Of a DNA stretch of 64,000 nucleotides, positions 1 through 42,957 are shown one piece after another. The stretch is from Bacteroidia bacterium (GTDB lineage Bacteria; Bacteroidota; Bacteroidia; UKL13-3): NCBI GenBank assembly GCA_021740845.1, contig JAIOYZ010000005.1:3693-67692 (forward strand), written 5' to 3'. Each line of letters begins with the position of its first letter. Positions within the stretch are counted from its first letter, which is position 1. The position numbers and the translations under genes were made by a program. The notes beneath the pieces were generated by a model, which was given only the letters and a program-made list of their open reading frames with translations, did no database searches and was not told the origin of the DNA.

Positions 1-92
1 ATAAAGAAAAAAAACAATAAAAGAATTGAGTGGAATCATAATTTAAATGAAACGATTGTTTCAATTTTGAATAAACACTAAAACAAAACAAA

Positions 93-1466
93 ATGTACGT
101 AGAACAAATTTATACCAAATGCTTAGCAGAAGCAGCTTACTATATTGAAAGCAATGGCGAAGCTGCTATTATTGATCCGCTACGTGAGACCGAACCTTAT
201 ATTGAAATGGCAGAAAAAAGAGGGGCAAAAATTAAATATGTTTTTGAGACTCATTTTCATGCTGATTTTGTAAGTGGACATATTGACTTAGCGCGTAAAA
301 CGGGAGCTCAAATTGTGTATGGTCCAACCGCAGAAGCAGGTTATGATATTTATGTAGGAGAAGATGAAGAGGTTTTTTCTGTTGGTGATATTACTTTAAA
401 GTTAATGCATACTCCTGGACATACACTAGAATCTATGTGTTTGTTATTGAGTGATGAAAAAGGCAACCCAAATGCAGTTTTTACTGGAGATACTGTTTTT
501 GTTGGAGATGTTGGGAGACCAGATTTAGCGGTTAAATCTGCCTTGACCCAAGATGACTTGGCGGGTTTGTTATTTGATTCTATTCAAAAGAAAATAAAGC
601 CATTAGCAGATGATGTAATTATATATCCTGCACATGGCGCGGGTTCTGCCTGTGGCAAGAATATTGGGAAAGAAACACAAACAACTATCGGTGAACAAAA
701 GAAAAGCAATTATGCCTTCACAATTACCTCTCGCGAAGAATTTATTAAAGCAGTAACAGATGGTTTGGAAGAACCACCTAAATACTTTTTTATGGACGCT
801 GCCATAAACAAAAATGGCTACGATGATATTGATGCTGTAATGGCAAGAAATACCATTGGGCTTGATCCAAATGAGTTTGAAGCAGAAGTAAAAAAAGGTG
901 CTATTATTTTGGATGCTCGTGATGCCGAAATTTTTGAAAAAGGATTTATCCCTGGTTCTATAAATATTGGATTGAATGGTCAGTATGCTGTTTGGGTTGG
1001 TTCATTAATAGACCATGCCACACCTATTTTGGTTGTTACTGATGAAGGAAAAGAAAACGAAGCCGTTTTGCGATTAGCACGTGTGGGTTACGAGCATGTA
1101 TATGGCTTCCTAAAAGGTGGTTTTGAAGCTTGGTTGGTAAAAGGGAAGCATATAGAATTGGTGGAGTCTATTGAGCCAGTACAAATGTTGGGCATAGATC
1201 ATCATACCATTATTGATGTAAGAAATGCCAGCGAATGGCATGGCGGTGTTTTGGAAGGCGCAGAATTAATTCCCTTATCCAAATTGGAGGCGCAGTTAAC
1301 CAATCTCGATAAAGAACAAAAATATTTAATCCATTGTGCAGGAGGTTATAGAAGCATGATGGCTACTTCACTAATGAAGAAACATGGATTTTTACATGTA
1401 AAAAATGTAAGAGGTGGCATTAACAAAATCAAAGAAAGTGGCTTTATGTTAGTTATTCCAGCTTAA
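93..1466 (+). CDS. MBL-fold metallo-hydrolase (persulfide dioxygenase-like) fused to two rhodanese domains, CstB-like
   Basis: HxHxDH metal motif THFHADFVSGH near the N-terminus. Two C-terminal rhodanese-like modules, the last with an active-site Cys in IHCAGGYRS. Confidence 0.8.
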   Translation: MYVEQIYTKCLAEAAYYIESNGEAAIIDPLRETEPYIEMAEKRGAKIKYVFETHFHADFVSGHIDLARKTGAQIVYGPTAEAGYDIYVGEDEEVFSVGDITLKLMHTPGHTLESMCLLLSDEKGNPNAVFTGDTVFVGDVGRPDLAVKSALTQDDLAGLLFDSIQKKIKPLADDVIIYPAHGAGSACGKNIGKETQTTIGEQKKSNYAFTITSREEFIKAVTDGLEEPPKYFFMDAAINKNGYDDIDAVMARNTIGLDPNEFEAEVKKGAIILDARDAEIFEKGFIPGSINIGLNGQYAVWVGSLIDHATPILVVTDEGKENEAVLRLARVGYEHVYGFLKGGFEAWLVKGKHIELVESIEPVQMLGIDHHTIIDVRNASEWHGGVLEGAELIPLSKLEAQLTNLDKEQKYLIHCAGGYRSMMATSLMKKHGFLHVKNVRGGINKIKESGFMLVIPA

Positions 1467-1471
1467 TAGGT

Positions 1472-1669
1472 TTGAACCAAATGAAACTAATTTTGAAATA
1501 TAAATTTATCCTAATTGGAAGCCTTTTAGGAATTGTAGCAGGGTTTTCATATTACTATTTTATTGGATGCGCTAGCGGCACTTGTGCCATTACCTCTAGT
1601 CCAGTAAATAGTAGTTTATATGGAGCATTTATGGGAGGATTGTTGGGGGATTCATTTAGGAAAGGGTGA
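1472..1669 (+). CDS. small membrane protein with CASGTC cysteine pair, 65 aa
   Basis: Starts 5 bp after the MBL-rhodanese stop. One TM helix followed by GCASGTCAIT. Sits in a sulfur-metabolism gene neighbourhood. Confidence 0.4.
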   Translation: MNQMKLILKYKFILIGSLLGIVAGFSYYYFIGCASGTCAITSSPVNSSLYGAFMGGLLGDSFRKG

Positions 1670-1775
1670 GAATGGCTGTTGGCTATTAGCTTCTGGCATC
1701 TGGCTACTGGCTACTGGCTTTTAGCTATTTCTTTGAGTGAAGTTGTCTACTTATTTATTGGGATAAAAAAGGACA

Positions 1776-1930
<155 letters not shown>

Positions 1931-1968
1931 GTAGTAGGATTAATAAAAAAAAATAAAAGTAAAAATAT

Positions 1969-2268
1969 ATGTCAGCATTTAACGATTTAATTAACGGTAC
2001 TACCCCGGTTTTGGTAGATTTTACGGCCACTTGGTGTGGACCTTGCAAAATGATGTCGCCCATTTTAGATGAGGTGGCGGGCGAATTGGGTGAAAGTGTA
2101 AAGATTATAAAGGTGGATGTAGATAAAAATCCACAAGCAGCGCAGCATTACCAAGTACAAGGCGTGCCAACATTAATATTATTTAAAGAAGGCAAAACGG
2201 TATGGCGTCAATCTGGAGTTGTACCAAAAGGACAATTAATTTCAAGTATTCAACAATTTAATAAATAA
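1969..2268 (+). CDS. trxA: thioredoxin
   Basis: WCGPCK active-site motif. Length is 99 aa. Confidence 0.9.
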   Translation: MSAFNDLINGTTPVLVDFTATWCGPCKMMSPILDEVAGELGESVKIIKVDVDKNPQAAQHYQVQGVPTLILFKEGKTVWRQSGVVPKGQLISSIQQFNK

Positions 2269-2272
2269 AGTT

Positions 2273-2587
2273 ATGATGAGTTTTATAAAGAAACTATTTT
2301 CTAGTCCTGTTAACGAAGAAATGAAGGAACAACTTGCGGCAGGAGCTGCAATTATTGATGTGCGCAGCGAAAGTGAATTTGCAGGCGGACATGTTAAAGG
2401 CTCTAAGAATATCCCATTAAACAAGTTATCAGATAAATTGGCCGGAATAAAAAAATTGAATAAGCCAGTAGTTTGTGTTTGTGCAAGTGGGATGAGAAGT
2501 TCTCAAGCCACTAATTTCTTAAAGCAAAACGGAGTAACTGCATACAATGGTGGTTCATGGCATTCGGTAAATAGATTAATTGATTAA
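2273..2587 (+). CDS. single-domain rhodanese sulfurtransferase
   Basis: Rhodanese fold with catalytic Cys in CVCASGMRS. Starts 4 bp after the trxA stop. Confidence 0.8.
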   Translation: MMSFIKKLFSSPVNEEMKEQLAAGAAIIDVRSESEFAGGHVKGSKNIPLNKLSDKLAGIKKLNKPVVCVCASGMRSSQATNFLKQNGVTAYNGGSWHSVNRLID

Positions 2588-2589
2588 AA

Positions 2590-3003
2590 ATGGGAACAGT
2601 ACATCAAACCAAAACCCAGCATATGGGTAAAATGGAATTTGATAGTGTTATCAATAACCATCATATTACGATTGATACGGTAGAAGCTGGTGGTGGCGAG
2701 AATCATGGCCCAAACCCAAAGCCACTTATGCTTAGTGCACTTGCTGGTTGCACCGGAATGGATGTTGTTTCTTTGCTCAATAAAATGCGTGCAGAATACA
2801 GCGATTTTTCCATTGATGTAGATGCTGATTTAAGCGATGAGCATCCAAGAATGTATACCGAAATTCGCGTTAAATACTTTATCAAAATAAACGATAGAGA
2901 GAAAATGGAAAAGGCGGTACGACTTTCAAAGGACCAATATTGCGGCGTTAGTGCTATGTTGAAAAAAGTTTGTCCGGTAGAATTTGAGATAAATTATTTG
3001 TAG
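2590..3003 (+). CDS. OsmC/Ohr family peroxiredoxin-like protein
   Basis: OsmC-like pattern PKPLMLSALAGCTGMDVV. Starts 2 bp after the rhodanese stop, so it is co-operonic. Confidence 0.7.
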   Translation: MGTVHQTKTQHMGKMEFDSVINNHHITIDTVEAGGGENHGPNPKPLMLSALAGCTGMDVVSLLNKMRAEYSDFSIDVDADLSDEHPRMYTEIRVKYFIKINDREKMEKAVRLSKDQYCGVSAMLKKVCPVEFEINYL

Positions 3004-3082
3004 GCTGTTTTTGGGTTTTGGGCTTTGGGGAAGGACATGGTTGTTGGTAAATAGTACTTTTTTGCGGGGTAGTTTTTGGGCG

Positions 3083-3130
3083 GGTAGTTTGTTTATTTCG
3101 TTTTGAACCGAGACAATTTGAAAATAGAAC
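3083..3130. repeat. partial copy of mosaic intergenic repeat, module A (ggtagtttgtttatttcgttttgaaccgagaca...)
   Basis: Shares about 40 bp with the 5' end of the element at 5329-5456. Confidence 0.6.
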
Positions 3131-3575
3131 CTTTATGGAGAATATAAATTTTAGACATTTTGTAAAAATAAAAAAAACACGCACGAAACAACTACAAAAA
3201 GTACCTTCATGGTACTAAATTAGGTTCAAAGCCTTCGAAAAAAACGAACTCCTCATTGAACAGGGGATCTCCTAAGCTGTTTTCTTATATTAAATATATG
3301 TTGTTTATTTATGTTCAATCAGATTTTATTTTTTTGTTGATTACCATTTCTTTGTGATGAAAGTACCAATTACAATTTGCAAATTTCATATAGGCATAAA
3401 AGAAAACCCAATTAACGATTGTTTTTATGGTTTGTCTTATAGAGCATTACTTTAAAAATCCAAAAAAATAATTTGAATATAATTGATTATCAAATTCCTT
3501 TTGAAAAGTTAAACTCATTTCATACTTTTATTGGACCTCAGTGATAAAAAAGAAATATTTTCGGGTCCTATTAAA

Positions 3576-5213
3576 ATGAATTTTATGCAATTATTTATGA
3601 ATCGTATTATAATTTTACTTCTTACATTAATTATTTTTCATTTCACTTCATGTGAAAATAATAGCAATAAAAAACAAAATATAAATTATTCGAAAATTGA
3701 AATAAAAAGAATAGTTTACTTGTGCAAAACCTGGGGTGCATTAAAATACTTAACTAGTAATACTAAATACAATAATATTGATTGGAATACAGAATTATAC
3801 GAGCAACTTTCTGAAAATCCAAATTTTTACTCCAATAACCAAATATTAGAAAAGGTATTAGTAAATTTAATAAGTAAAGCTGATGACGGAGAAAATAAAG
3901 TTGAAGAAAGGGCATGCAATTTTAATCTATATTGGGTAAATGATACTTCAATAGTAAATAAAAGCACGACAACTAAATTGTTGAAAATAATTAAAACGAA
4001 CCATGGTGTTATTAACAACCCAAATTTAGTATATGTTAATGGAGTTATAGATTTTACTGAAGAAAATAAAAAATTTTTGGATGAAGAATTACCAGAAATT
4101 AATTCGAAAATGGTAAATATTTTCAGGTATTGGAATATTATCAATTATTTTTTCCCTTATAAGAATTTAATGGATAGAAATTGGGATGAGGCTTTAAATG
4201 AATATATACCCAAAATATTAAATTCATTTTCTATTTCAGAATATCAATACAATTATCTTGAATTTATTTCTTTGTTAAGGGATGGCCATGGTTTTTCATT
4301 GTGTGACTACACCAAAACTTGGTATGATGACTTTGTTCCTAGTTTCAGCTTAGTAAATGGAAAAATAATTATCGAAAATAACCAAATTCAAACTTTGATA
4401 AATGGTGACTCAGTAATAATGATAAATGGAAAAACCATTGATAGTATTCAATTTTACCTCACAAAAATTTTCCCATCCTCCAATATTTCTTACACAAAAA
4501 AGAAACTTGAAAAGTTGATTTTTGATTTTGACACTACAAAAATTCTTGAATTAGAGATTATTAGAAATGGCTCGCCGAAGTCAATAAAAATTTCAAAAAT
4601 TGAAACATTTTCTAACGAAAAAAATTCAGATTACCCGCCATTTAAATACTATGGAAATATACTTTACTTAAATTATGGAATACTTAATCCAGTATTATTA
4701 GATAGTTTATTAAAAAGCATTTCGAAAAATGAACCAGAAATAATTATAGATTTAAGGGTTTATCCCAAAGAATATATGTTTAATGAAATTTTTGCAAATT
4801 TAGTTGTCACTTCCAAACCCTTTGTTTTGTTGAATTTAATTAATCCAAATTGTCCAGGAAACTTTACAAATTCTGAGATTTATAAAACCGAATCTTTAGG
4901 TGCAAAATTAAAACTTAAAAAATGTATTTTATTGGTTGATGAAAACACAATGAGTCATGGGGAGTTTTCTGCAATGTGTTTTCAAACATTACCTAACACT
5001 TATACAATTGGTAAACAAACTGCTGGAGCAGATGGGGATATTGTTGGAGTAAATATTTCAGGTGGAATAAGTACCTCCTTTTCAGGAATAGAAATTCTAT
5101 ATCCCGATAATACACCGACTCAAAGAAAAGGAGTAAAAATAGATAAATACTTTGATGGAAATAGCGATTCAACTATGATTCATGCAGCCATTAATTTTAT
5201 TAAACATCATTAA
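3576..5213 (+). CDS. S41-family (C-terminal processing / tricorn-like) peptidase lipoprotein, very AT-rich
   Basis: Signal peptide with lipobox FTSC when the start is taken at MNFMQLF. PDZ-like segment NGDSVIMINGKTIDS. C-terminal S41-like catalytic region LVDENTMSHGEFSAM ... TIGKQTAGADGDIV. Confidence 0.5.
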   Translation: MNFMQLFMNRIIILLLTLIIFHFTSCENNSNKKQNINYSKIEIKRIVYLCKTWGALKYLTSNTKYNNIDWNTELYEQLSENPNFYSNNQILEKVLVNLISKADDGENKVEERACNFNLYWVNDTSIVNKSTTTKLLKIIKTNHGVINNPNLVYVNGVIDFTEENKKFLDEELPEINSKMVNIFRYWNIINYFFPYKNLMDRNWDEALNEYIPKILNSFSISEYQYNYLEFISLLRDGHGFSLCDYTKTWYDDFVPSFSLVNGKIIIENNQIQTLINGDSVIMINGKTIDSIQFYLTKIFPSSNISYTKKKLEKLIFDFDTTKILELEIIRNGSPKSIKISKIETFSNEKNSDYPPFKYYGNILYLNYGILNPVLLDSLLKSISKNEPEIIIDLRVYPKEYMFNEIFANLVVTSKPFVLLNLINPNCPGNFTNSEIYKTESLGAKLKLKKCILLVDENTMSHGEFSAMCFQTLPNTYTIGKQTAGADGDIVGVNISGGISTSFSGIEILYPDNTPTQRKGVKIDKYFDGNSDSTMIHAAINFIKHH

Positions 5214-5328
5214 TTCTGTTATAATCTAAATTAATTTGGCTTCTTATTTAGCAAAAAATCTATCAACAACTGAGTGAGTGGCTTATCTATGCCACAAAGC
5301 AAATTGAATCATAGTTAGTCCTTTATCT

Positions 5329-5456
5329 GGTAGTTTTTTTATTTCGGTTTGAACCGAGACAAGTTAGAGAGTAGAAGAAAAAAGCTGAGTGAGGTTTCTG
5401 AGTAGAAAAGGGCGGATCCTGAGTGAAATGTCATTTTTCGTTTACTCTGCTAAAAG
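5329..5456. repeat. mosaic intergenic REP/MITE-like element, full module A (~110 bp)
   Basis: Sequence atttcggtttgaaccgagacaagttagagagtagaag aaaaaagctgagtg...tttttcgtttactctg, highly similar to 8098-8200. Abuts the stop codon of a minus-strand gene. Confidence 0.75.
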
Positions 5457-5466
5457 TTAGCGAAGG

Positions 5467-6396
5467 TTATTCAATTTCAAAATGCTTCTTAATACGCAAC
5501 ATTCTTAACGTGTTCCATTTACTGGGTTTTCCTGCTTTCTCCATGATGACGTGTACTTGTCCTGAATGTGCTGCATGCAAATTCCATGATCCATCCTTAT
5601 TCTGTTTTTTATTCAAATGGGCCAATGCCTCAGTCATTCTATCGTCCCATTTAATTCCTGCGTATTGAAAATAATCCATAGCTCTAAGAATGTCATATTT
5701 CCATCTGCATGGATAGCTTAACTTTAAGAAGTTTTTATCAATTATTTCTCCTGTGTGGTCTGATAAAAATAATCTGTGCATTAAGATAAATTCTATAGCA
5801 GTTTTAATAGCAACAGAAATTTCTTTTTTTCTATAAAAGAATCCCGTTTTCTGAAATTCGGTGAATCCTTCGAGAACTGAAATAGTAGAATGCAATGAGC
5901 TATGTTTTGCTCCACTTCTTGTTGACCTGCAATTAAATCCTCCATCCGGCATAATCTCATTAAGAATACTGTCTATAATGGAATGTAACTTCTTTTCAGG
6001 TGTTTTGAAATAGGAAGCATAATTCAAAAACATTCCATTTACACAAACGTCACTATGCTGCGATGTGGATGGCCCCAATTGAATACCTCCATCATCTGCT
6101 AGGTTATTTTGTAAGACCAGTTCTATTGTCTCTTGTACCATCTCATTGTTTGCTGGAAGATTTAAATTGCGAAGGTCAAGTAAAGTGTAATGGGTGGAAA
6201 TCCATTTGGGTTGATAGAATCTATCGCCCCAATGTCCGTTTGAATTACGTTTTGATAAAATTTTGGTACCCCATCCTTCATTTGGTATTCGGTTTTGAAG
6301 TTTCTTTTTGTCAGAACCTAACAAATCACGCCAAACTTGGTATTGGATAGAGACATCTCCTTCCAATAACCAGTCTATGATTTGTTGATTGTTCAT
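5467..6396 (-). CDS. prenyltransferase / squalene-cyclase-repeat (alpha-alpha toroid) protein
   Basis: Four to five repeats resembling the QW / PFTB motif: NGHWGD, DDGGIQ, PDGGFN, KDGSWN. Confidence 0.45.
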   Translation of the reverse strand: MNNQQIIDWLLEGDVSIQYQVWRDLLGSDKKKLQNRIPNEGWGTKILSKRNSNGHWGDRFYQPKWISTHYTLLDLRNLNLPANNEMVQETIELVLQNNLADDGGIQLGPSTSQHSDVCVNGMFLNYASYFKTPEKKLHSIIDSILNEIMPDGGFNCRSTRSGAKHSSLHSTISVLEGFTEFQKTGFFYRKKEISVAIKTAIEFILMHRLFLSDHTGEIIDKNFLKLSYPCRWKYDILRAMDYFQYAGIKWDDRMTEALAHLNKKQNKDGSWNLHAAHSGQVHVIMEKAGKPSKWNTLRMLRIKKHFEIE

Positions 6397-6451
6397 TTTC
6401 TTTTTGAAATTTAATTTTGAATATACTACTCAAGAATAGATGTGGCATACA

Positions 6452-6748
6452 TTATTGTTTCCATCTTTCAAGATTTGGAATTGACCTTGTAGCCAACCAT
6501 GCAAAGAAAACGTTCATTCCGTCTTTCTTCATTTCTTGTATACAAAACTTTTGCATTTTTTTGGCGGTATCAATCTCTGGAGGGGTTAAAAAAGATCCAT
6601 TTTCATAACACATGGAACAGTACTTTTTACTAATCGTTCCGTCTTTCTCAGTTCCTCCACCTTTTTTATCTTTCTTTAATGGGAAACCACAGCTTTGGCA
6701 AAATTTATATACTTTCATTTTATTATTTATTTCATTGAAGGTTGTCAT
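6452..6748 (-). CDS. putative zinc-ribbon domain protein
   Basis: Two CxxC pairs, FCQSCGFPL ... YCSMCYENG. Length is 98 aa. Confidence 0.5.
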   Translation of the reverse strand: MTTFNEINNKMKVYKFCQSCGFPLKKDKKGGGTEKDGTISKKYCSMCYENGSFLTPPEIDTAKKMQKFCIQEMKKDGMNVFFAWLATRSIPNLERWKQ

Positions 6749-6769
6749 TCGTAATAATTACTGCAAACC

Positions 6770-6850
6770 TCAGTCATACTAAAAACTAAGTTTTGCAACT
6801 CGAAAATAAGATATTTTTTATGCGATTTGGCGATGGCTAGAAAAATAGTT
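6770..6850. repeat. ~80-bp direct repeat (copy A), shared 5' leader module
   Basis: About 92 percent identical to 7811-7891. Lies immediately upstream of the start of a minus-strand gene. Confidence 0.8.
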
Positions 6851-7090
6851 TAGTTAATTGTTATTAAAGAAAATTGGGCGGCTTAATCCTTCCAATCGCC
6901 AAAAGAAAATACGGTTTTCTTATTAAAGCTAAATTCTTAAAAGGCAAACCTTATAGGCCTAGGCTAAAGATTTTACCCACAAAATTAATCGGCCGAAAAG
7001 CCCCAACCCTGAACGTAGTTCCACTCAACACAGGGTTCAAAGTGTGTCCTCCGGCCGCTTCGAACCCTTATCTGTTAGCAGAAGTTTTTT

Positions 7091-7795
7091 TTAAGGAACT
7101 TCATATTCATAAACTACTTGCGTCAATTTATTATCTACAAATTCCATTTCGGCTTTGAATTCAAGTCCATCTATAATGAAAGGTCTTAATCCCCCAACTT
7201 TATTCGATTCTCCATTCTCAAGCATAACAAATTGCCACACCAATAATTTTTTGTTTTCTAATTGTTCAGCAGTATTTGGAACTCCAAATATTCCCTTAAC
7301 TTCATCAATTGACAAACCAAGCTTTATTCCTTTTTTAGTTTGAATTGTGTCAATTTCTATTGTCTTTTTGTGATTGTTAATTTGAATTCCTTCAAATTGA
7401 AGTAGACTTAATAAATTCGAATCAGTGATTTCCGTTTCAGTTAAAATTGCTGTTGTTATTGAATAGTCGGTGTATGGAACAAAATATAATTTACTCTTTC
7501 CATTCGAGCTAATAAACCACTTAGAACCATCTTCTTTAAATTGATTGAATTGAGAAGTATTTAGATTAAAGAAGTCAGGTTGTATTCCCTTAGTGTAGGT
7601 TGGTTTGGTTACTTGAATTTCTAATGATTCATCACTTTCAAAACTTTTCTCTTCAGCTTTTTCTTCTGTTTTTTCTAATACTTGGCTTTCAATTTGAATT
7701 ACAGAAACATTCTTATCCGATTCGTTTTCAGAAGAATTATTCTGCCTGCAAGAAATCAGGCTAATAGCTATTAATATGTATATAAGGTCTTTCAT
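7091..7795 (-). CDS. hypothetical lipoprotein
   Basis: Signal peptide plus lipobox LISC. Acidic, low-complexity N-terminal region. Confidence 0.5.
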   Translation of the reverse strand: MKDLIYILIAISLISCRQNNSSENESDKNVSVIQIESQVLEKTEEKAEEKSFESDESLEIQVTKPTYTKGIQPDFFNLNTSQFNQFKEDGSKWFISSNGKSKLYFVPYTDYSITTAILTETEITDSNLLSLLQFEGIQINNHKKTIEIDTIQTKKGIKLGLSIDEVKGIFGVPNTAEQLENKKLLVWQFVMLENGESNKVGGLRPFIIDGLEFKAEMEFVDNKLTQVVYEYEVP

Positions 7796-7810
7796 TTAAT
7801 TACCGCCAAC

Positions 7811-7891
7811 TTCAGTCTACCAAAAACTAAGTTTTTCAACTCGAAAATAAGATATTTTTTATGCGATATGGCGATGGCTTGAAAAATAGTT
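7811..7891. repeat. ~80-bp direct repeat (copy B), shared 5' leader module
   Basis: Matches 6770-6850. Lies immediately upstream of the start of lipoprotein gene 7091-7795. Confidence 0.8.
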
Positions 7892-8039
7892 GATATAAAA
7901 ATTTATAAAATTTAAGTGGCTTAAAATGAAGGAATAGAAAGTGTAGCAAAGCTAAAACACAGAAAGCTAATCCATTTATAATAAGCAATACAATTCTAAA
8001 TCTAAAAAAGGCAAGGATAAAAAACAATGTAGCTCTATT

Positions 8040-8200
8040 AAAGCAGCTTACTTTATACCCAAAAGGATGTGACCTTTTCAAAACTTGGTTTCAGTCAATT
8101 TCGTTTTGAACTGAGACAAGTTTGAGAGTAAAATAAAAAAGCTGAGTGTGGTTCCTGAGTGAAATCGAAGGGAACGGCCCTTTTTCGTTTACTCTGTTAA
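8040..8200. repeat. mosaic intergenic repeat, module B followed by module A
   Basis: Module B (aaagcagcttactttat.cccaaaaggatgtgaccttttcaaaacttggtttcagtcaa) recurs at 9285-9363. Module A matches 5329-5456 and contains a small hairpin aagggaacggccctt followed by a T-run. Confidence 0.75.
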
Positions 8201-8203
8201 ATT

Positions 8204-8629
8204 TTAACGGCTGGCAGATATAGTTTTCACAAAATTATCTGGTGTCATAACCGCCAAAGAACTATTTTTAAAATCTTTCAAATTTCGTGTGAGTATCAAT
8301 TCTATTTCCTTATTTGTTTCGGCAGAATAATTTTGCAATGCATCCTCAAAATCTTTAAATTTTGAATTTAAAGCATGTATTACAGTATATCGGTCTATAA
8401 CTAGAATTTCGGTTATTGAAACTAGCATTTTCAGATGGTCTATCACTTTTTCATGCTTCTCTGTTTGCCGTAATAAATAGTATACATTACCAATAATTAC
8501 CGGTGTAATATAGCCAGTGATTTTTTTGGATTCGCATAGAGAAAAAACTTTTGCGGCATTGTCCGAAAATGGTTTTCTATCAAAAAAGAAATCTAAAATT
8601 ACATCTGTATCAATCAGTATTTTTTGCAT
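8204..8629 (-). CDS. PIN-domain toxin (VapC-like)
   Basis: N-terminal ILIDTDVILDFF acidic PIN signature. Length is 141 aa. Lies directly downstream of a small antitoxin-like gene. Confidence 0.7.
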   Translation of the reverse strand: MQKILIDTDVILDFFFDRKPFSDNAAKVFSLCESKKITGYITPVIIGNVYYLLRQTEKHEKVIDHLKMLVSITEILVIDRYTVIHALNSKFKDFEDALQNYSAETNKEIELILTRNLKDFKNSSLAVMTPDNFVKTISASR

Positions 8630-8632
8630 TGC

Positions 8633-8881
8633 CTATAAGTATTTCTCTGACAATTTTTTTGTCAACTCTTTTTTATAGTCAAAATTCGTTGGTGCTGTGA
8701 ATGAACCTTTAAGCGACTTTACAATCGGCGTCAATTCTATTTCCTCTGAGTTCGATTCTTTAGTTATTGCACGAAGATAATTTTCTATCAAATTCGAAAG
8801 ACTTCTACCTTTTCCTTTGGCGTATTTTTTTGCGTTTTCAATAACGCTTTCATCTATTGTAAGTGTAAGCTTAGTATTCAT
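8633..8881 (-). CDS. type II antitoxin-like small protein
   Basis: Length is 82 aa. Separated by 3 bp from the PIN gene. Confidence 0.5.
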   Translation of the reverse strand: MNTKLTLTIDESVIENAKKYAKGKGRSLSNLIENYLRAITKESNSEEIELTPIVKSLKGSFTAPTNFDYKKELTKKLSEKYL

Positions 8882-8919
8882 AATTTCTTGTTCAGAACAA
8901 AATTACTAAAGAATATATT

Positions 8920-8949
8920 CACGTGCAAAAATAATTTTAAGTACACGTG
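8920..8949. promoter_or_regulatory. pair of CACGTG palindromes 18 bp apart, candidate TA operator
   Basis: Sequence cacgtg-N18-cacgtg, 40-70 bp upstream of the antitoxin start. Confidence 0.3.
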
Positions 8950-9284
8950 TTGACTGCTTGCCGCTAATCGGTTCACGCAAGAGAGTTTATGAACCCAGAA
9001 TTATTTCAATTCATAGGCGTTCATGATTATTAATTCACCCTTAGGTTCTCAATACCTGTTCCGCATTTTTGGGAGAACCGTGTTTGATCCCGCACCTGAG
9101 GGACACACTGCTCTTCTTGATTCATCACGAATGTATTTATTCATCATGGATTTACCAATAAGTGGTGAGGAAAAATTAATTGGGTTCCATTTAAATTTTG
9201 AAACTAGAAGATTGATTGAGGAAACAAAGGAAGCAATACAATTTAGGCACAAAAAAAGACAAGTATAAACAAAGAAGCCCTGTA

Positions 9285-9363
9285 AAGCAGCTTACTTTAT
9301 TCCCAAAAGGATGTGACCTTTTCAAAACTTGGTTTCAGTCAATTTCGTTTTGAACCGAGACAT
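9285..9363. repeat. mosaic intergenic repeat, module B plus truncated module A
   Basis: Near-identical to 8040-8118. Confidence 0.75.
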
Positions 9364-9511
9364 CTTTAAGAAACGCTCAATAAACTAGCAAAATAGCGTC
9401 ATGGCAAATTGCCTTTACTTCCAAAATTTTGGTTCAAACCAAACCTTAATATTGCTTGGTATTTCTAAAATTTTCTAAATACCATTTTTTGGTTCAAACC
9501 GAACCCAAGAC

Positions 9512-10093
9512 TTATTTATTGCTGCGCAACTTGGCTCTTACTTTACTTAGAAACTCAGGCGAAATACCCAAATAAGCCGCTATTAAATGTTGTGGAACAC
9601 GCTGAGGAATACTTGGATATTTACTTATAAACTCCAAATAACGCTCTTCTGCTGGCTTTGAAATATTGCCTATCAAACGGTTCATAAGCGACTCTAAACT
9701 CTTTTGAACCAATATGCGGAAATACCTTTCAAAAACGGGATATTTAGTTAGCAATTGTGCCTTAGAATTAAATCCTAGAAATAGGAATTCGCAATCTTCA
9801 ATGGCCTGAATAAATAGCTGAGATGGCTTTTGTTCGGTAAAACTTCCAATATCACTTACCCACCAATCTTCTTCTGGAAACGCCAAATCTACCTCAAATC
9901 CTTTCTCATTTAAATAATAAATACGGGCAATGCCTTTAACTAAATATGCTTCAAAAAGGCAAACTTCACCTGCTTGCAATAAGAACTCTTTTTTCTTAAT
10001 TTTCTTAGGAACTAAAACACTATGAAGAAAATCTATTTCCTCTTGGTTAAAGGCAATTCGCTTGGCAATATTTTTATCTAATTCCTGAAACAA
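9512..10093 (-). CDS. Crp/Fnr family transcriptional regulator
   Basis: cNMP-binding beta-roll followed by a C-terminal HTH, IAAYLGISPEFLSKVR. Confidence 0.8.
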   Translation of the reverse strand: MFQELDKNIAKRIAFNQEEIDFLHSVLVPKKIKKKEFLLQAGEVCLFEAYLVKGIARIYYLNEKGFEVDLAFPEEDWWVSDIGSFTEQKPSQLFIQAIEDCEFLFLGFNSKAQLLTKYPVFERYFRILVQKSLESLMNRLIGNISKPAEERYLEFISKYPSIPQRVPQHLIAAYLGISPEFLSKVRAKLRSNK

Positions 10094-10096
10094 ATT

Positions 10097-10813
10097 CTAT
10101 TTTTTGAGCTTCTTTTTTGGAGTACTTGTTTTTAATTGAATTACATCCACTAAAAATGCAAAGGCCATTGAGAAATAAATATATCCTTTTGGGATATGAA
10201 AATCCAAACCTTCTGCCATCAATGAAATTCCAATAACAATTAAAAAACATAAGGCCAATATTTTAAATGAAGGATGCTTTTGAATAAAGTTACTAATGGC
10301 GCCAGAAGCCATTAACATGATGCCTACCGAGATAATTACCGCAGCATACATAATATAAAGATTATCTACCATACCCACCGCAGTTACAATAGAATCAATA
10401 GAAAACACTACGTCTAAAACCAAAATTTGGATCAACAATTCTTTAAATGTATTGGCTTTTCCTTTGGCTAAATTTTCTTCCTCTTCGCCCTCGTGCTCGG
10501 TTTTTAAATAAATCTCTTTGGTACTTTTATACATCAAAAACAAACCACCCGAAATAAGTATTAAATCCTTGCCCGAAATATCAATATCTTGAACACTAAA
10601 AAGTGTATTCTCGAGTTTCATGATATAAGAAATAATGGTAAGCAAGAACAAACGAATAACCATTGCCAAACCAATACCCGTTTTCCTTAATTTGTCTCTT
10701 TGCTCGGCTGGGAGTTTTTGAGTAAGAATGGAAATAAAAATAATATTGTCAATCCCCAAAATCACCTCAAGTGAAATAAGGGTAAAAAGGGCAATTAATA
10801 AATCGCTAGTCAT
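10097..10813 (-). CDS. TerC family membrane protein
   Basis: GIDNIIF motif with multi-pass TM character. Confidence 0.75.
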   Translation of the reverse strand: MTSDLLIALFTLISLEVILGIDNIIFISILTQKLPAEQRDKLRKTGIGLAMVIRLFLLTIISYIMKLENTLFSVQDIDISGKDLILISGGLFLMYKSTKEIYLKTEHEGEEEENLAKGKANTFKELLIQILVLDVVFSIDSIVTAVGMVDNLYIMYAAVIISVGIMLMASGAISNFIQKHPSFKILALCFLIVIGISLMAEGLDFHIPKGYIYFSMAFAFLVDVIQLKTSTPKKKLKK

Positions 10814-10883
10814 GTTATTTAGTTTAAAACCTTAGGTTTTCAATGATACGAGAAAAAGGAATGGATTTCCAAATTCTTTGTTA

Positions 10884-12224
10884 TTATTTTAGAAAATCTC
10901 GGTACCAAAAGCCAGAGTCTTTAATAATTCTTTCTTGAGTTAAATAATCAATGTAAATCAAGCCAAAACGCTGCTCATAACCTTCTGCCCATTCAAAATT
11001 ATCGGTGAGCGACCAAACAAAATAACCTTTAATTTTATGGTTTTCTTCTAATGCTTTGTGCACATTATCAAGATGGGATTTTAGGTAGTGTACACGCTCC
11101 AAATCGTGCACCCTTCCGTTTATGGGTTCGTCGTAAAATGAAGCCCCATTTTCTGTTATTATTACAGATTTCACTCCTTCATAAGAAGAAAAATGCTTTA
11201 TCATTTCGTAAATGGAATTGGGATAAACTTCCCATTCCATGCGAGTATGATGTACTTTTCTTTTTTTTGCAGGAATTAATTTTGCGCGCAAATAAGGAGT
11301 AAAAAAGCTATTGCTCACCACCTCTCTTGTATAAACTTGTACGCCAATAAAATCAAAGTCTGCTTTAAGATTTTCTTTATCGCCAGGTAAGATGTATTTG
11401 TTCATCTTTTTAAGCGTTGGCAAATCGTTAATTGGGTATCCCAAGCCCAAACTTGGTTCAATAAAAAACCTATTTAAAAGGGCATCCATTCTTTTGGCAG
11501 CCCTTACATGACTAGGAGAATAATCTACCGGTGTTACCTGCGTACAACTAAATGTGGTGCCAACAATGGCGCTGGGTTGTAGTTTTTTAATAGTTCTAAA
11601 ACCTATAGCTTGGCAAAGCGCAGCGTGATGAGCAGCCTTTAAAAAATTACCAATTCCTTTTTTGCCGGGCGCGTGTAACCCTGCAAAATATCCTGCACCT
11701 GTAAAAACTAAGGGTTCATTTAAAACCATCCAATGTCTCACCTTTCCACCAAAAGCCTTGATGCAAACCTCAACATATTCTTCAAACCAAGTGAGAATTT
11801 CTCTGTTTGTCCAACCGCCTTTTTTCTCTAATAGCAAAGGTAAATCCCAATGGTAAAGCGTAATCCAAGGTTCAATTCCATTTGCCAAACAATGGTCGAT
11901 TACTTGGTGGTAAAAATCAATGCCATCTTGGTTTATCCTTCCAATTCCATCTGGCAAAATGCGCGGCCAAGATAAGGAGAATCGAAAATTTGGAATGCCC
12001 ATTTCTTTTATTAGGGCAATATCCTCTCTAAATTGGTGGTAAAAATTTGCAGCTACATAATGATTCTGTTTGCCTTTTATCTGGTTTTTATCTGCAAACT
12101 CATCCCATATAGATGGACCTTTACCATTAACATTATGTGCACCCTCTGTTTGCAAGGCAGAAGCAGAAACACCCCAAGCAAACTCTTCCCCAAAATCTTT
12201 TGCTTTTAATCGCTTATTTTCCAT
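10884..12224 (-). CDS. glycoside hydrolase family 1 beta-glucosidase
   Basis: GH1 catalytic signatures LNEP and ITENG. Length is 446 aa. Confidence 0.85.
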   Translation of the reverse strand: MENKRLKAKDFGEEFAWGVSASALQTEGAHNVNGKGPSIWDEFADKNQIKGKQNHYVAANFYHQFREDIALIKEMGIPNFRFSLSWPRILPDGIGRINQDGIDFYHQVIDHCLANGIEPWITLYHWDLPLLLEKKGGWTNREILTWFEEYVEVCIKAFGGKVRHWMVLNEPLVFTGAGYFAGLHAPGKKGIGNFLKAAHHAALCQAIGFRTIKKLQPSAIVGTTFSCTQVTPVDYSPSHVRAAKRMDALLNRFFIEPSLGLGYPINDLPTLKKMNKYILPGDKENLKADFDFIGVQVYTREVVSNSFFTPYLRAKLIPAKKRKVHHTRMEWEVYPNSIYEMIKHFSSYEGVKSVIITENGASFYDEPINGRVHDLERVHYLKSHLDNVHKALEENHKIKGYFVWSLTDNFEWAEGYEQRFGLIYIDYLTQERIIKDSGFWYRDFLK

Positions 12225-12244
12225 TTTTCGGTTTGAACCAAGCC

Positions 12245-13294
12245 TTATAAATTACCAAAGATTTTAGTCATTAATTTTGGGGATTTCTCCACCCTGTTGC
12301 TATTTTGATGTCCGTGATTACGAACAATTAGTTCAACTATTTCAGCAGCATTATCTGGATAATCAACTTTTATATCATCGCCCGTTTTGAACCAAAGTCC
12401 TAATTTTTCGCTATTCTTTTTATTCAATTTTTTGATAACAGTTACCTCCATGCTTTTTAACATGGCTGCATTGCATTGTTGCTCAAATTGAGTTTTCATG
12501 GGAATTACCAATAGCTTTTTACCCATGTACAAAGCCTCGCTGGTAGTACCAAAACCGGCATTGCAAATTACCCCTGCAGAATTGGCCATGCTTTTTAAAA
12601 ACGCATCTTTTTCTATTGGACTAATTTCAATATTATCTTTAACATACCTTTTCTTGCTATGCTTAGAAAAAACCTGAAAAGGAATCGATGGAAAACGACG
12701 TAGGTTTTTAATAATTTTCTCATCCGAGTAGGAAGGCAAATACACCGTATAATGCCCTAGGTTCAAAACGGAATGTTCTCTTACTTCTTTTCTAATTATG
12801 GGAGTAAATATGTGTTGATCCAAAGATTTAAAATGGAAACCATAAGCGTAGGTTACGGGAGCATAATGCAATAAAACCATTTTACCCAAAACATCATTTT
12901 TCTTGGGCATAGGCGCAAGTGGATGGAGTGTTGCCATTTGATTGCTTAAGCCAATGCAAACTCTATTTTGTTTTAAAGCTGCCCATGCAGAAACAGGCTC
13001 AAAATCGGATATGATTAAATCGTAATTTTGGATTGGTAAATTCTTTATTTCCTTGAGTAATTTCAAGGATTTCATTTTCCAATAAGTTTTCCAAACATCT
13101 ACTCCCCCATTTTTGCCAAACACAAAAGACAATCCGTTAAAGCGATATTTTACCTTTAAGGGAATTTCCAAATCAGCCTGAATTCCACTAACCAAAATAT
13201 CCACTTCTCCATACTTTTGAAAATGTGGAATTAGCTCAATTGCTCGTGTTATATGCCCATTTCCAGTTCCTTGAACAGCGTATAAAATTTTCAT
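12245..13294 (-). CDS. GT-B glycosyltransferase (MurG/MGT-like, TIGR00661-like)
   Basis: N-terminal GTGNGHITRA motif. Length is 349 aa. Confidence 0.55.
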   Translation of the reverse strand: MKILYAVQGTGNGHITRAIELIPHFQKYGEVDILVSGIQADLEIPLKVKYRFNGLSFVFGKNGGVDVWKTYWKMKSLKLLKEIKNLPIQNYDLIISDFEPVSAWAALKQNRVCIGLSNQMATLHPLAPMPKKNDVLGKMVLLHYAPVTYAYGFHFKSLDQHIFTPIIRKEVREHSVLNLGHYTVYLPSYSDEKIIKNLRRFPSIPFQVFSKHSKKRYVKDNIEISPIEKDAFLKSMANSAGVICNAGFGTTSEALYMGKKLLVIPMKTQFEQQCNAAMLKSMEVTVIKKLNKKNSEKLGLWFKTGDDIKVDYPDNAAEIVELIVRNHGHQNSNRVEKSPKLMTKIFGNL

Positions 13295-13299
13295 TAGTC

Positions 13300-14157
13300 T
13301 TATTTAATTTTAGCTGGAACTAAAAACTCGGATAGCATTTGGTCGAATATTTTGTCATTGCTCATTTCCACCAATTCATCCTCTTCTTCCAAAACCTCTT
13401 CCTCTTCAAAATCGCTTTCATCGTATCGATATAGTGACCATTTGCCATCATTGTATTCTAATGCGGTTAAATTTTCAATCCAATCTCCAGAGTTTAAATA
13501 CTCCACCGAACCCTTTTCTGTACTAATGGTTTTCATTTCTGGCTGGTGAATATGTCCACATAAAACGTAATCAAAACCGTTGGCAATGGCAATATCTGCA
13601 GTAATCTTCTCAAAATCGTTGATAAACTTTACGGCTTGCTTTACTCCATTTTTAATATTCTTTGAAAGCGAAATTTTTCCTTTTCCCATTTTCTCAGAAA
13701 TCCAATTAACAAAGGCATTGATTAATATTAGCAAATCGTATCCATGAGAACCCAAGCGGGTAAGCCATTTAGAATGCTTCATGGTAACATCAAATACATC
13801 ACCATGAAAAATCCAGGTTTTCTTGCCATCCAATTCGAGCACCAATTTATTTTCAATAGACAAGGTTCCCATTTTAAAACCAGCAAATTTTCTAAGTAGC
13901 TCGTCGTGGTTTCCGGTAATATAATACACCTTAACACCTTGGCTCACCCATTTAATGATTTTGTGAATTACGCGCATGTGAGATTTGGGCCAAAAACGTT
14001 TGCTAAATTGCCACATATCAATAATATCGCCATTAAGCACAATGGTTTTGGGTTTTATTGAACCTAGGTATTTGAGTAAAGATTTGCTCTGGCAACCATA
14101 GGTTCCGAGGTGAATATCAGAAATCACCAAAACATCTATTTTCCGCTTTTTAGACAT
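13300..14157 (-). CDS. UDP-2,3-diacylglucosamine diphosphatase-like metallophosphoesterase (LpxH family)
   Basis: DIHLG, GDIID and GNHD motifs. Confidence 0.7.
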   Translation of the reverse strand: MSKKRKIDVLVISDIHLGTYGCQSKSLLKYLGSIKPKTIVLNGDIIDMWQFSKRFWPKSHMRVIHKIIKWVSQGVKVYYITGNHDELLRKFAGFKMGTLSIENKLVLELDGKKTWIFHGDVFDVTMKHSKWLTRLGSHGYDLLILINAFVNWISEKMGKGKISLSKNIKNGVKQAVKFINDFEKITADIAIANGFDYVLCGHIHQPEMKTISTEKGSVEYLNSGDWIENLTALEYNDGKWSLYRYDESDFEEEEVLEEEDELVEMSNDKIFDQMLSEFLVPAKIK

Positions 14158-38269: not shown

Positions 38270-39106
38270 TTAATATTCCCAAAGATCGTGTTCTTTTTCG
38301 AACAATTCATTTTTAATACGTTCACCTTCTAATAAAGTTGCAACGCCATTATCTCTAAACTCAGCATAATCCTTGATATACATATCTTGCTGATTAGCTT
38401 CTTTAGTAATATAACTTGTAAATAATCTTTGCTCAAACCAGTCGTCATAAGTTAGTCTTGCAGCATCATTTTGCCTGTTAAAAACTTCATAGTTTACAAG
38501 GAAATGACGTAAGTCTAAACCATCTTTTGAATGGTATTTAAACACACATAAATCTTGTTCACCTAAATCTACACCACCTAAACGTACATTGTATTGAGGT
38601 GAAATAGATACTATTCTAACAAACATCTGTGAATGTTTTTTATCAAAAATCCAATCTTCAACTACACGAAACTTAAAAATTCTCAGTTCCGGTATCATTG
38701 CATTAACAACGGTATCAGTTACTGTAAATGTAGGATCATTAGGATCAATAGGTACATCAAAGTATTCTGTATCGGTTCCCAATGATAGAAACTTTTCAAT
38801 AGACATTTGAGTGTTTAATGAGTCACTTTCATAAGGAACTAATTTACCATCACGCACAGCATTGTACAAAATCACACTTAATGGGTTTTTAGGCCATGTC
38901 ATGGGTTGATTTGCTTTTTCACGCGTATCAATAATTCGCACAACACGTTTTGCGTACATTACATCTGCCTCACGTAAGTATGGCCATGCAATAACTTTAC
39001 GCTCGGTAACTGCCTGACGGTTATAAATGAAATCATCATATACACCTTGGGCAAAATTGCTATACGAAAGCAACAGAAAAACTACAATACCTATTAATTT
39101 TTTCAT
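38270..39106 (-). CDS. gldN: gliding motility / T9SS protein GldN (PorN)
   Basis: Last gene of the gldKLMN block. Conserved DTREKANQ and DWFEQRLF segments. Confidence 0.8.
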   Translation of the reverse strand: MKKLIGIVVFLLLSYSNFAQGVYDDFIYNRQAVTERKVIAWPYLREADVMYAKRVVRIIDTREKANQPMTWPKNPLSVILYNAVRDGKLVPYESDSLNTQMSIEKFLSLGTDTEYFDVPIDPNDPTFTVTDTVVNAMIPELRIFKFRVVEDWIFDKKHSQMFVRIVSISPQYNVRLGGVDLGEQDLCVFKYHSKDGLDLRHFLVNYEVFNRQNDAARLTYDDWFEQRLFTSYITKEANQQDMYIKDYAEFRDNGVATLLEGERIKNELFEKEHDLWEY

Positions 39107-39124
39107 TTCTGATTTGATTCTTTT

Positions 39125-40657: not shown

Positions 40658-40690
40658 TTCTTTTTATATCTATTAAAGTAGTTTGTAAAA

Positions 40691-41485
40691 TTAGTTACTA
40701 CGAGTATTCATGGCAGCAAGCATGTTACCATAAACACTGTTTAGTGAAGATAAATTCTTGTTCAATTTATCCATTTCACCTTTAAAATGCTCAGCATTTG
40801 TAGTTGATTCATTTAAAGTATTAACTACTTTAGATAATCCACCAACAAATTCATTAATAGATTTCAAGTGATTATTTGATTCTGAAATTTCTAATTCATA
40901 GATAGAATTCAATGAATTCAAATTCTTAGTCATTTTTTCAATTTGTGCACCGTATTCACGTGAACCTTCTGAAGCATTTACTAAACCTTCCATAGCACTT
41001 ACAGCTTTGGTATAAGTAGTATTAATACCTGTTAAAGAATCAGCAGCCGCTTGAACATTTTTAGTGTAAGCATCAGTTGCTACTGCAGCTGTTGATAGAT
41101 CTTTCATGCTAGTAACGTTTTCGCTTAATGTACGCATTCCGTTTCCTAAGCTACTAATCAAATCTGGACCAATTTTAGCCTCTTCCATCATTTTGTCCAA
41201 TTGTTGAGTTAAGGTACCCTTACTTACAGCTTTCTTTTCTTTTGGTTCAAGACCAGCTAATTCAGGATAAACTAATGACCAATCTGGTTCTTGATGAGGT
41301 GGTTCAAAAGCAGAAATAAAGAAAATAGCAGCCTCAGTTAACAAGCCCACCATCAACATCGCATCAGCACCTGGCCAGTGAAGAATTTTGAAAAGGGCAC
41401 CAATAATTACAACTGCAGCACCAATTCCATAAGCCTTTGCCATAAAAGACTTAAAGCCTTTACTTTCTAAAAAACTGTTTTTCAT
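40691..41485 (-). CDS. gldL: gliding motility / T9SS protein GldL (PorL)
   Basis: Two N-terminal TMs and a coiled-coil C-terminus. Operon position is consistent with GldL. Confidence 0.8.
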   Translation of the reverse strand: MKNSFLESKGFKSFMAKAYGIGAAVVIIGALFKILHWPGADAMLMVGLLTEAAIFFISAFEPPHQEPDWSLVYPELAGLEPKEKKAVSKGTLTQQLDKMMEEAKIGPDLISSLGNGMRTLSENVTSMKDLSTAAVATDAYTKNVQAAADSLTGINTTYTKAVSAMEGLVNASEGSREYGAQIEKMTKNLNSLNSIYELEISESNNHLKSINEFVGGLSKVVNTLNESTTNAEHFKGEMDKLNKNLSSLNSVYGNMLAAMNTRSN

Positions 41486-41505
41486 TCGATTAAATTTTAA
41501 AGTTT

Positions 41506-41548
41506 AGAATTTGTTTAGTTTGTTTGTTTGTTTGTTTTGTTTGTTTAT
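41506..41548. repeat. (GTTT)n / (CAAA)n microsatellite in the gldK-gldL intergenic spacer
   Basis: Sequence tttgtttagtttgtttgtttgtttgttttgtttgttt. Confidence 0.9.
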
Positions 41549-41554
41549 TCGATC

Positions 41555-42847: not shown

Positions 42848-42957
42848 TTTTATGTTAAAAATTAATGACTGTAATGTGGCAAAAATATTAATTCCTGTGA
42901 ATTATACAAGTATCTATGATATTATTTTGTTAATAAAACGTAAAGTATTGAACATTA

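Follow-up and report, generated by a model that had tools for sequence, protein, structure and literature searches.

A probable cluster of integron-type gene cassettes outside a recognisable integron, in a repeat-stitched region downstream of osmC in a freshwater Bacteroidia bacterium

Here, we present the analysis of an accessory region in the genome of an uncultured freshwater Bacteroidia bacterium. One genome stretch of about 64 kb, in the following called the window, was analysed, and the region in question (positions 3004-9510) lies between osmC and the gene of a Crp/Fnr-type regulator. It is probably a small cluster of integron-type cassettes located outside a recognisable integron, at a synteny breakpoint downstream of osmC; such a cluster would be devoid of an integrase, its attC sites would have decayed, and it would now be reshuffled via repeats at the cassette junctions. 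The cargo is of integron origin, the framework is not that of a canonical integron, and the unusual feature of the locus is this attC-less framework stitched together from repeats. Two cargo units, a gene pair encoding a Zn-ribbon protein and a 309-aa protein and the gene of a lipoprotein, have preserved cassette ends (G|TTRGC... at the 5′-end and ...GCTAAC at the 3′-end), and the DNA between the cassettes consists of modules private to this locus (a, b, c, core and D4), each present in two to four copies. The cargo as a whole would comprise the gene pair, the 234-aa lipoprotein, a PIN/DUF6364 toxin-antitoxin pair and an S41 peptidase gene in reversed orientation, together with a 306-aa membrane protein in a sister strain. 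The gene list of the original prediction agrees with the listing of open reading frames (ORFs) and with Pfam. The cargo features are the following:

3576-5213, + strand: divergent S41 peptidase (PF03572)
5456-6768, - strand: two-gene cassette of the Zn_ribbon_2 protein and the 309-aa toroid protein, 5′-end G|TTTGCAG (6768|6767), 3′-end CGCTAAC (5462-5456)
5467-6396, - strand: 309-aa alpha/alpha-toroid protein, no Pfam family above threshold
6452-6748 (or 6452-6718), - strand: Zn_ribbon_2 protein (Pfam)
7069-7809, - strand: lipoprotein cassette, 5′-end G|TTGGCGGTAATTAA-ATG at 7810|7809
7091-7795, - strand: gene of this cassette, a 234-aa lipoprotein-like orphan ORF, no family
8204-8629, - strand: PIN_3 toxin (PF13470, 3e-18)
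8633-8881, - strand: DUF6364 antitoxin (PF19891, 1e-27)
8204-8928, - strand: PIN_3/DUF6364 pair with its own Bacteroidetes-type promoter (TTG..TAnnTTTG at 8898-8928) and CACGTG palindromes, from a promoter scan

Judged by sequence comparison, the Zn-ribbon/309-aa unit is a mobile integron gene cassette, as the same unit boundaries stand beside attC sites elsewhere. It forms a discrete unit of 1.3 kb with sharp ends, and each of its DNA matches lies in an unrelated neighbourhood:

L088-L090, metagenome-assembled genome (MAG) of a ‘Chlorobiota’ bacterium: 91% DNA identity over 1313 nt to 5456-6768
L101/L102, Bacteroidia, housekeeping context: 87% DNA identity
L087, Marivirga salinae: 80% DNA identity
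L092, Aurantibacillus: 79% DNA identity

For comparison, a housekeeping protein of the window is at most 83% identical on the amino acid level to its counterpart in any GTDB species representative, and about 60% identical in Cytophagales. Horizontal acquisition, as had been proposed for the region, is thus borne out by a unit with 79-91% DNA identity in unrelated Bacteroidota and ‘Chlorobiota’ contexts. An integron origin of the cargo had not been noticed in the original prediction. In the ‘Chlorobiota’ MAG (L089), the pair is located between 126-nt direct repeats, four of which occur within 9 kb. They have the form ..GCTAAC|ACGGGTTTGGCAAAAGTGGCG...CGCCACCTTCGCCAAGCC.GAAAAC|GTTAGC.., and each folds as a canonical attC with an R box, a bulged L box and a variable loop, the bottom strand being the more stable one. 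In L101, the pair stands alone, as a single cassette surrounded by housekeeping genes, and its attC is intact. The copies in Marivirga and Aurantibacillus are devoid of attC; the Marivirga salinae locus (CP129971.2, 2637319-2654248) appears as another accessory hotspot, in which the pair is found near IS110 and rve transposases, ParE and DUF433/DUF5615 toxin-antitoxin pairs, and which also holds three genes with a beta-lactamase fold and an unrelated S41 peptidase.

A further context is provided by a long co-directional array in Saprospiraceae (L097-L100) with small genes, several toxin-antitoxin pairs, many attC sites and a tyrosine recombinase at its head. Here, the 309-aa gene is a solo cassette and Zn-ribbon paralogues are present as separate cassettes. 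The recombinase scores 223 bits with the model NF040815 ‘tyrosine recombinase/integron integrase’ (cutoff 220) and 207 bits with TIGR02249, which is below the cutoff of 265. Encoded at L100 6773-7975 on the same strand as the cassettes, it forms together with L097 an apparent complete integron, and the array interleaves two attC sequence subfamilies of about 130-145 nt.

The 309-aa protein belongs to a large family. More than 5,600 homologous clusters were found, the top 120 of which are 79-100% identical and nearly all 309 aa in length; their sources are Saprospiraceae, Marivirga, Algoriphagus, Aurantibacillus, Lunatimonas and the ‘Chlorobiota’ MAG. Clustering at 50% identity gives about 2,500 clusters for the wider family, nearly all with a length of about 310 aa. 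A function as class II terpene cyclase or prenyltransferase was not supported, with matches below threshold to the family models (SQHop_cyclase_N of Pfam with 16.5 against a cutoff of 26.2, TIGR01787 with 18.9 against 322) and no catalytic DxDD motif on reading the sequence. A sequence search of the PDB with this protein gave no match. Among distant relatives (P0290/P0269), one fusion carries an N-terminal Imm5-like putative immunity domain (E 3e-17), and another a C-terminal region resembling nucleotidyltransferases and aminoglycoside adenylyltransferases, a weak similarity below the Pfam cutoffs. These fusions point to a role of the family in conflict systems, which is a lead and not a finding; PADLOC gave no relevant match, and no cargo gene gave a match to a known immunity or defence family.

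The lipoprotein gene behaves as a second cassette. It has 27 homologues in total, and those in L103, L104, L107 and L108, four contigs of related organisms, lie in differing neighbourhoods, always start with G|TTGGCGGTAATTAA-ATG and end with ..GCCAAC or ..GCCAAT, so that the junction G|TTGGCGG is constant across contexts, including the copy in the window. Beside these homologues, short attC-like sites were read by eye, upstream in L107 and L108 and downstream in L103 and L104. In L107, every cassette starts at its 5′-end with a sequence complementary to the inverse core with which it ends. Such complementarity between a 5′ TTRRRY and the cassette's own 3′ inverse core RYYYAAC was also found in L088 (GTTAGCTGTA / TATAGCTAAC) and for the membrane protein cassette of the sister strain (L096), with 14-nt inverted ends GTTAGCAGGC...GCCTGCTAAAC. 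The cassette ends in the window are partly degraded (GTTTGCAG / CGCTAAC, and GTTGGCGG / CTGCTAAC). On the basis of counterparts flanked by attC, cassette status can thus be assigned to the gene pair and the lipoprotein, and to the S41 gene only through a homologue with 41% identity.

This S41 homologue, the closest one, is part of an attC-containing array (L113). The window protein matches PF03572 with 27.8 bits (cutoff 24) over its C-terminal 87 residues only; about 230 homologues with 27-41% identity are annotated as S41, and a peptidase S41 domain is predicted on these grounds. Its gene is the only cargo gene on the + strand. The PIN_3 and DUF6364 genes are separated by 3 nt with the antitoxin first, an arrangement that is predicted to represent a type II toxin-antitoxin system. 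Toxin-antitoxin pairs are typical passengers of cassette arrays (PMC8618304).

The second component of the region is its system of repeats, which occupy the space between the cargo genes:

3070-3119, + strand: repeat copy A, module a plus the 20-nt core (repeat family D2, core search)
5316-5365, + strand: repeat copy B, module a plus core (repeat and core search)
5366-5455, - strand: module b copy 1, directly past the GCTAAC end of the two-gene cassette (repeat families D5, D8, D17)
6769-6886, - strand: module D4 copy 1, ending exactly at the G|TT cassette junction (repeat search and three-way alignment)
7811-7921, - strand: module D4 copy 2 (repeat search and alignment with copy 1 and the L096 copy)
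8039-8203, + strand: repeat copy C, consisting of module c (8039-8097), core (8098-8118) and module b copy 2 (8119-8203) (families D3, D5, D8)
9283-9371, + strand: repeat copy D, module c plus core (family D3, 94% identity with copy C), where the repeat system ends on the right

The 20-nt core TTTCGKTTTGAACYGAGACA occurs four times (3096, 5342, 8099 and 9343), in every case on the + strand, with no copy expected by chance and no further copy in the 64 kb. Its flanks are mosaic: copies A and B have module a in front of the core, copies C and D have module c there, and copies B and C share module b behind it. The mosaic of repeated non-coding modules that had been noticed earlier was thus recovered as a non-random arrangement. 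Outside the region, modules a, b, c and D4 turned up neither in the remaining 57 kb of the window nor in 1.5 Mb of sequence from other loci, and a scan of metagenomes for the core returned this locus and three unrelated single matches only. Module b copy 1 is bounded by the inverted 10/11-mers TTAGCAGAGTA / TACTCTCTAA and holds three heptamers of the CACTCAG type; copy 2 starts directly past the stop codon of the PIN gene. The D4 repeat pair comprises 92 nt (6777-6868 and 7818-7909) with 87% identity, just upstream of the start codons of the Zn-ribbon and the lipoprotein gene.

Several ordinary roles of these modules were considered. The core contains a palindrome with FNR-like geometry, and a function as operator of the adjacent Crp/Fnr regulator was dropped because two genes converge on copy B with their 3′-ends and because the short motif is found window-wide, also within genes. 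A role of D4 as a promoter is doubtful; it is devoid of a TAnnTTTG box, and the nearest boxes are located upstream of it at 6980-6987 and 7947-7954. An Rfam scan of positions 1-14000 gave a single, spurious lncRNA match, so that a known RNA family was ruled out for the repeats. Module b (5380-5430 and 8140-8170; L096 1240-1300 and 2620-2670) contains two to three direct CTGAGTG(A) heptamers with a spacing of 14-21 nt, a set which resembles protein-binding iterons, followed on the + strand by a terminator-like hairpin GGGCACGGCCC-TTTTT.

A sister allele was obtained from the metagenome scan with the core, in the form of a 2.8-kb contig from a close relative (L096). Starting from the osmC flank, which is 98% identical, its order is a-core-b, the 306-aa membrane protein (- strand), D4, c-core-b and PIN-DUF6364, and continues with a truncated IS91-family transposase. 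The S41 gene, the Zn-ribbon/309-aa pair and the lipoprotein gene are all missing, and this type of arrangement was found in three independent samples overall. Compared with L096, the window has an extra S41 segment of 2.2 kb (3120-5315) bracketed by the 50-nt a-core direct repeats, and it carries other cargo in the interval from a ‘b’ copy to a D4 copy. The PIN/DUF6364 pair is 94-100% identical in the sister strain. The transposase fragment (L096 3-350, - strand) is 5′-truncated, belongs to the IS91 (rolling-circle) family as identified by eye from its translation, and meets the upstream region of the antitoxin at ..GCCGCTAATCGG|, exactly where the similarity to the window stops (window 8971). 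At this position, the window carries a different sequence of 300 nt with no trace of IS91.

Within the species, the same gene order with 99-100% protein identity is present in two NCBI MAGs and two SRA assemblies. The nearest species-level relatives in GTDB, in which the MBL-rhodanese protein is 78-83% identical, retain the block MBL-rhodanese / small ORF / thioredoxin / rhodanese / OsmC, and in none of them is osmC followed by a gene of the region or by crp-TerC-GH1. Synteny with the relatives of about 80% identity stops exactly at the osmC stop codon. In a relative with 81% identity (L009, 12251-20868), homologues of the window genes 38270-45764 follow at most 730 nt after osmC; the 3′-end of osmC is therefore a synteny breakpoint and not a simple insertion site. 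About 35 kb of the window (3004-38270) are thus inserted or rearranged relative to L009. The order of the region between osmC and crp was accordingly not seen in GTDB relatives, the comparison by which the original prediction was to be checked, and its view of a horizontally acquired and rapidly rearranging locus is upheld by the end of synteny at the osmC stop codon and by the sister strain with different cargo between the same repeats. Around thioredoxin and osmC, three low-complexity tracts accumulate (1675-1730, 1775-1920 and 3004-3035 in the window; 2780-2840 in L096). They consist of (TGGCT)-like repeats, of a 150-nt microsatellite, (GTAA)n/(GTAAGTAAGTAT)n, that immediately precedes thioredoxin, and of (TTTTGGG)n past osmC, the last with about three copies in the window and at least eight in the sister strain, where the contig ends within the tract.

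The search for attC sites in the window was based on two covariance models built from donor attC sites, R1 from nine seed sites and R2 from seven sites of a second subfamily. In the donor arrays, R1 recovers 17 attC sites and R2 about 16, comprising seed and non-seed sites in L089, L097, L100, L101, L107 and L113 with E between 1e-17 and 1e-4. Neither model detected an attC in the window (best E 0.73 and 0.087 with filters switched off on 2900-9700), a result that is strong for the donor types and weaker for attC sites in general. The borderline match of R2 (E 0.087 at 7023-7080, + strand) falls into a remnant past the lipoprotein cassette:

6950-7068, - strand: G+C-richer remnant that starts at a GCTAAC box and resembles donor attC sites by eye

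Its fold has a z of -2.1 on the gene-sense strand and of -0.9 on the other. The remnant may represent a decayed attC, with stability on the wrong strand, but this is not established. Other candidates were rejected. An attC read by eye past the S41 gene (5219-5320) folds with a z of about 0 on either strand, the AAC..GTT hairpin at the D4 junction is stable in only one of three copies, whole-region folds of the inter-cassette regions as long attC sites gave no R''/R' closing stem, and a purpose-built attC finder (AAC...GTT closing stem plus energy) returned nothing distinctive in the region. An IntI-like ORF was not detected in the 64-kb window by tblastn with the L100 recombinase (best E 0.74), Pfam searches covering part of the window ORFs; hence, the adjacent intI of a complete integron is missing within the window.

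Taken as a cassette cluster outside a recognisable integron, the region is most economically explained as follows. Recombination by an integron integrase would have delivered the cassettes, either directly or via an ancestral array, and the attC sites would later have been lost or overwritten. Today, gain, loss and swap of cargo would mainly proceed by homologous recombination between the repeated modules: S41 would be lost through recombination of the a-core copies A and B, and the stretch from a ‘b’ copy to a D4 copy would receive other cargo by a swap. The toxin-antitoxin pair would stabilise the cluster, each cassette is probably transcribed from sequence upstream of or inside its own junction module, and the cargo genes presumably do not form one pathway.

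Several points weigh against this reading. The clusters of attC sites lacking an integron integrase (CALIN) comprise at least two attC sites, that is, imperfect hairpins of the form R''-L''...L'-R' ending in G|TTRRRY. As no attC was found, the region falls outside CALIN. The general weakness of this negative arises because some short sites in L103 and L107 that look like attC to the eye are missed by R1 and R2, so that an unusual attC type is possible. An integrase or a proper array could also sit beyond the one stretch searched. Cassette status of the PIN/DUF6364 pair, whose 5′ cassette boundary was not found, is assumed by analogy, and homologous recombination between modules is inferred from two alleles only. 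In addition, D4 ends exactly at G|TT before three different cassettes. Simple mutational decay of attC fails to explain these exact ends, which hint at a site-specific step.

The last observation leads to a different, rather doubtful explanation, in which the region works as a cassette platform that is active but non-canonical. In this case, D4 would be a true recombination site, as might be the a/c-core junction on the opposite strand; such sites, either double-stranded and attI/attG-like or with very short hairpins, would be used by an integrase encoded elsewhere in the genome, and the exchange of cargo would be site-specific and not homologous. It is accordingly a tentative idea at best that D4 as a double-stranded site of about 110 nt ending at G|TT, perhaps together with a/c-core, constitutes a new kind of attachment site for cassettes that carry attC elsewhere. 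Copies of D4 with 80-91% identity end at G|TT before the Zn-ribbon/309-aa, the lipoprotein and the L096 306-aa cassettes, and past all four cores the + strand shows a GTTRRRY-like box (TTTGAAA, GTTAGAG, GTTTGAG, CTTTAAG), at which the similarity between the copies stops. There is also an experimental precedent in the insertion of cassettes by IntI at non-att genomic sites, termed attG (bioRxiv 10.1101/2022.09.11.507474). On the other hand, the window encodes no detectable recombinase, the D4 hairpin is stable in a single copy (fold z -4.2, compared with -1.0 and -0.8 in the others), only one compensatory pair is found among the three D4 sequences, and the modules are private to one locus. Furthermore, the core includes a motif that is over-represented across the window, so its recurrence need not reflect recombination.

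This motif, GGTTTGAACC, is also the starting point for a still less likely explanation, in which the repeats are ordinary dispersed intergenic elements (repetitive extragenic palindromes (REP), miniature inverted-repeat transposable elements (MITE), or shared terminators and regulator sites) that are dense here by chance, with the gene content as an unrelated accessory region. It occurs 21 times in 64 kb against an expectation of 0.34, about half of the copies being intergenic, and module b has inverted ends of the kind seen in miniature transposable elements, and also a terminator-like hairpin. Neither the 20-nt core nor any of the modules a, b, c and D4 was, however, found beyond this locus, and the module boundaries match the cassette ends of other genomes to the nucleotide. 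Many scattered copies, as expected for a REP or MITE family, were found neither in the window nor in the 1.5 Mb of other loci nor in the metagenome scan with the core.

Highly improbable, finally, is the earlier functional proposal of a module for peptide or protein modification composed of S41 peptidase, toroid and Zn-ribbon protein, or of a locus for surface-lipoprotein variation. The three genes are adjacent in the window, and Marivirga, too, has an S41 gene at a distance of about 0.8 kb from the pair. However, tblastn detects no relation between these two S41 proteins and no relative of the window S41 near the pair in the other genomes examined; at least six other contexts of the pair have no related S41 nearby, and this lack of co-occurrence across genomes refutes the module. 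The lipoprotein with its 27 homologues is a single independent cassette. The S41 gene is convergent to the pair and is regarded as unlinked to it because of its strand, its distinct base composition, its own 50-nt direct repeats and its absence from the sister strain. Only the Zn-ribbon and 309-aa genes travel together, and the solo 309-aa cassette in Saprospiraceae shows that even this is not always the case.

Features of the cassette cluster recur in several known systems. In variable loci such as those for capsule and O-antigen or the pdif modules of Acinetobacter, conserved flanks serve homologous recombination, which replaces the cargo between them. The region likewise has differing cargo between conserved short flanks, with direct repeats bracketing an S41 segment that is present or absent, whereas these flanks are non-coding modules of 50-120 nt and not genes. 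No Xer-type 11-6-11 site was evident in the core on reading the sequence. With CALIN and SALIN, attC clusters or single cassettes without an integron integrase (Cury et al. 2016; IntegronFinder 2.0, PMC9024848), the locus shares chromosomal cassettes without a nearby intI, preserved ends and a toxin-antitoxin pair; a further parallel is the solo Zn-ribbon/309-aa cassette with intact attC in L101. In contrast to it, two models that recover donor sites detect no attC in the window, private modules separate the cassettes, and S41 is reversed. Complete integrons are reported to be rare in Bacteroidota reference genomes (PMC9024848).

A third comparison concerns the rAID-1 arrays of Bacteroidales and sedentary chromosomal integrons with a co-oriented (‘inverted’) integrase (Ross et al. 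2019, bioRxiv 10.1101/471110). By definition, rAID-1 arrays occur in gut Bacteroidales and consist of a 5′ XerD-like recombinase with at least 44% identity to BF9343_RS08045 and, behind it, two or more co-directional genes of low G+C content (bioRxiv 10.1101/471110). The Saprospiraceae array resembles these systems in its 5′ XerD/IntI-like recombinase on the same strand, its small and mostly orphan genes, its toxin-antitoxin pairs and its repetitive intergenic hairpins. The locus in the window resembles rAID-1 in the turnover of cargo on the strain level and in the Imm5-like fusion of a 309-aa relative. It differs in that the window is devoid of a recombinase, is not wholly co-directional, has low G+C content in S41 only and carries cargo without a match to a known immunity or defence family.

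The fate of cassettes that land outside integrons has been studied only recently. At the present locus, cassettes that can be traced to attC arrays of other lineages reside in a chromosome without detectable attC or nearby integrase, and they still turn over between strains, apparently via private junction repeats. If the reading of D4 as an attachment site were true, the locus would be an attC-independent, integron-like platform. The Zn-ribbon gene with its toroid partner of about 310 aa is a very widespread two-gene cassette which crosses lineages on the phylum level, and functions in phage defence or toxin immunity are worth considering.

With respect to its setting, the region is delimited by the following features:

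2590-3003, + strand: OsmC, left flank (ORF listing and Pfam)
3004-3069, no strand: left junction past the osmC stop codon, G/T-rich (TTTTGGG)n-like tract and unique flank ‘x’ (sequence reading), 98% identical in the sister strain
3120-3575, + strand: AT-rich non-coding leader of the S41 segment, 24-30% G+C, without an Rfam match
9512-10093, - strand: cNMP-binding regulator, right flank (ORF listing and Pfam)

Non-coding DNA accounts for 35% of the region compared with 7% of the window outside it, and of the ten widest intergenic gaps in the window, five are located here. The unusually large intergenic space reported at the left edge (3004-3575) measures 572 nt, the median gap of the window being 43 nt. 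The G+C content of the window is 33.7% (standard deviation 3.0 in 500-nt windows), and that of the whole region 31.0%. The description of the region as very AT-rich holds for the S41 gene, which with 26.2% has the lowest G+C content among 54 genes, and for its leader, but not for the other genes of the region (30-35%).

Independently of the region, no 10-mer of the window, a microsatellite excepted, is more over-represented than the near-palindromic motif GGTTTGAACC (extended ~TCGGTTTGAACCAA). Besides the 21 exact copies, 34 sites are found when up to one mismatch is allowed, compared with 0.79 in shuffled sequences; examples are located at 1469, 12230, 35188, 47451 and 58935, and also at 9431 and 9491. 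The copies occur in both orientations without conserved flanks, ten of the 21 inside genes and eleven in the roughly 10% of intergenic sequence. A literature search for the motif returned nothing relevant. Its density amounts to 0.33 per kb in this species, to 0.05-0.18 per kb in the closest relatives and to about zero in 70 more distant Bacteroidia loci, and it could be a signal similar to DNA uptake sequences, the site of a global regulator or a mini-REP element.

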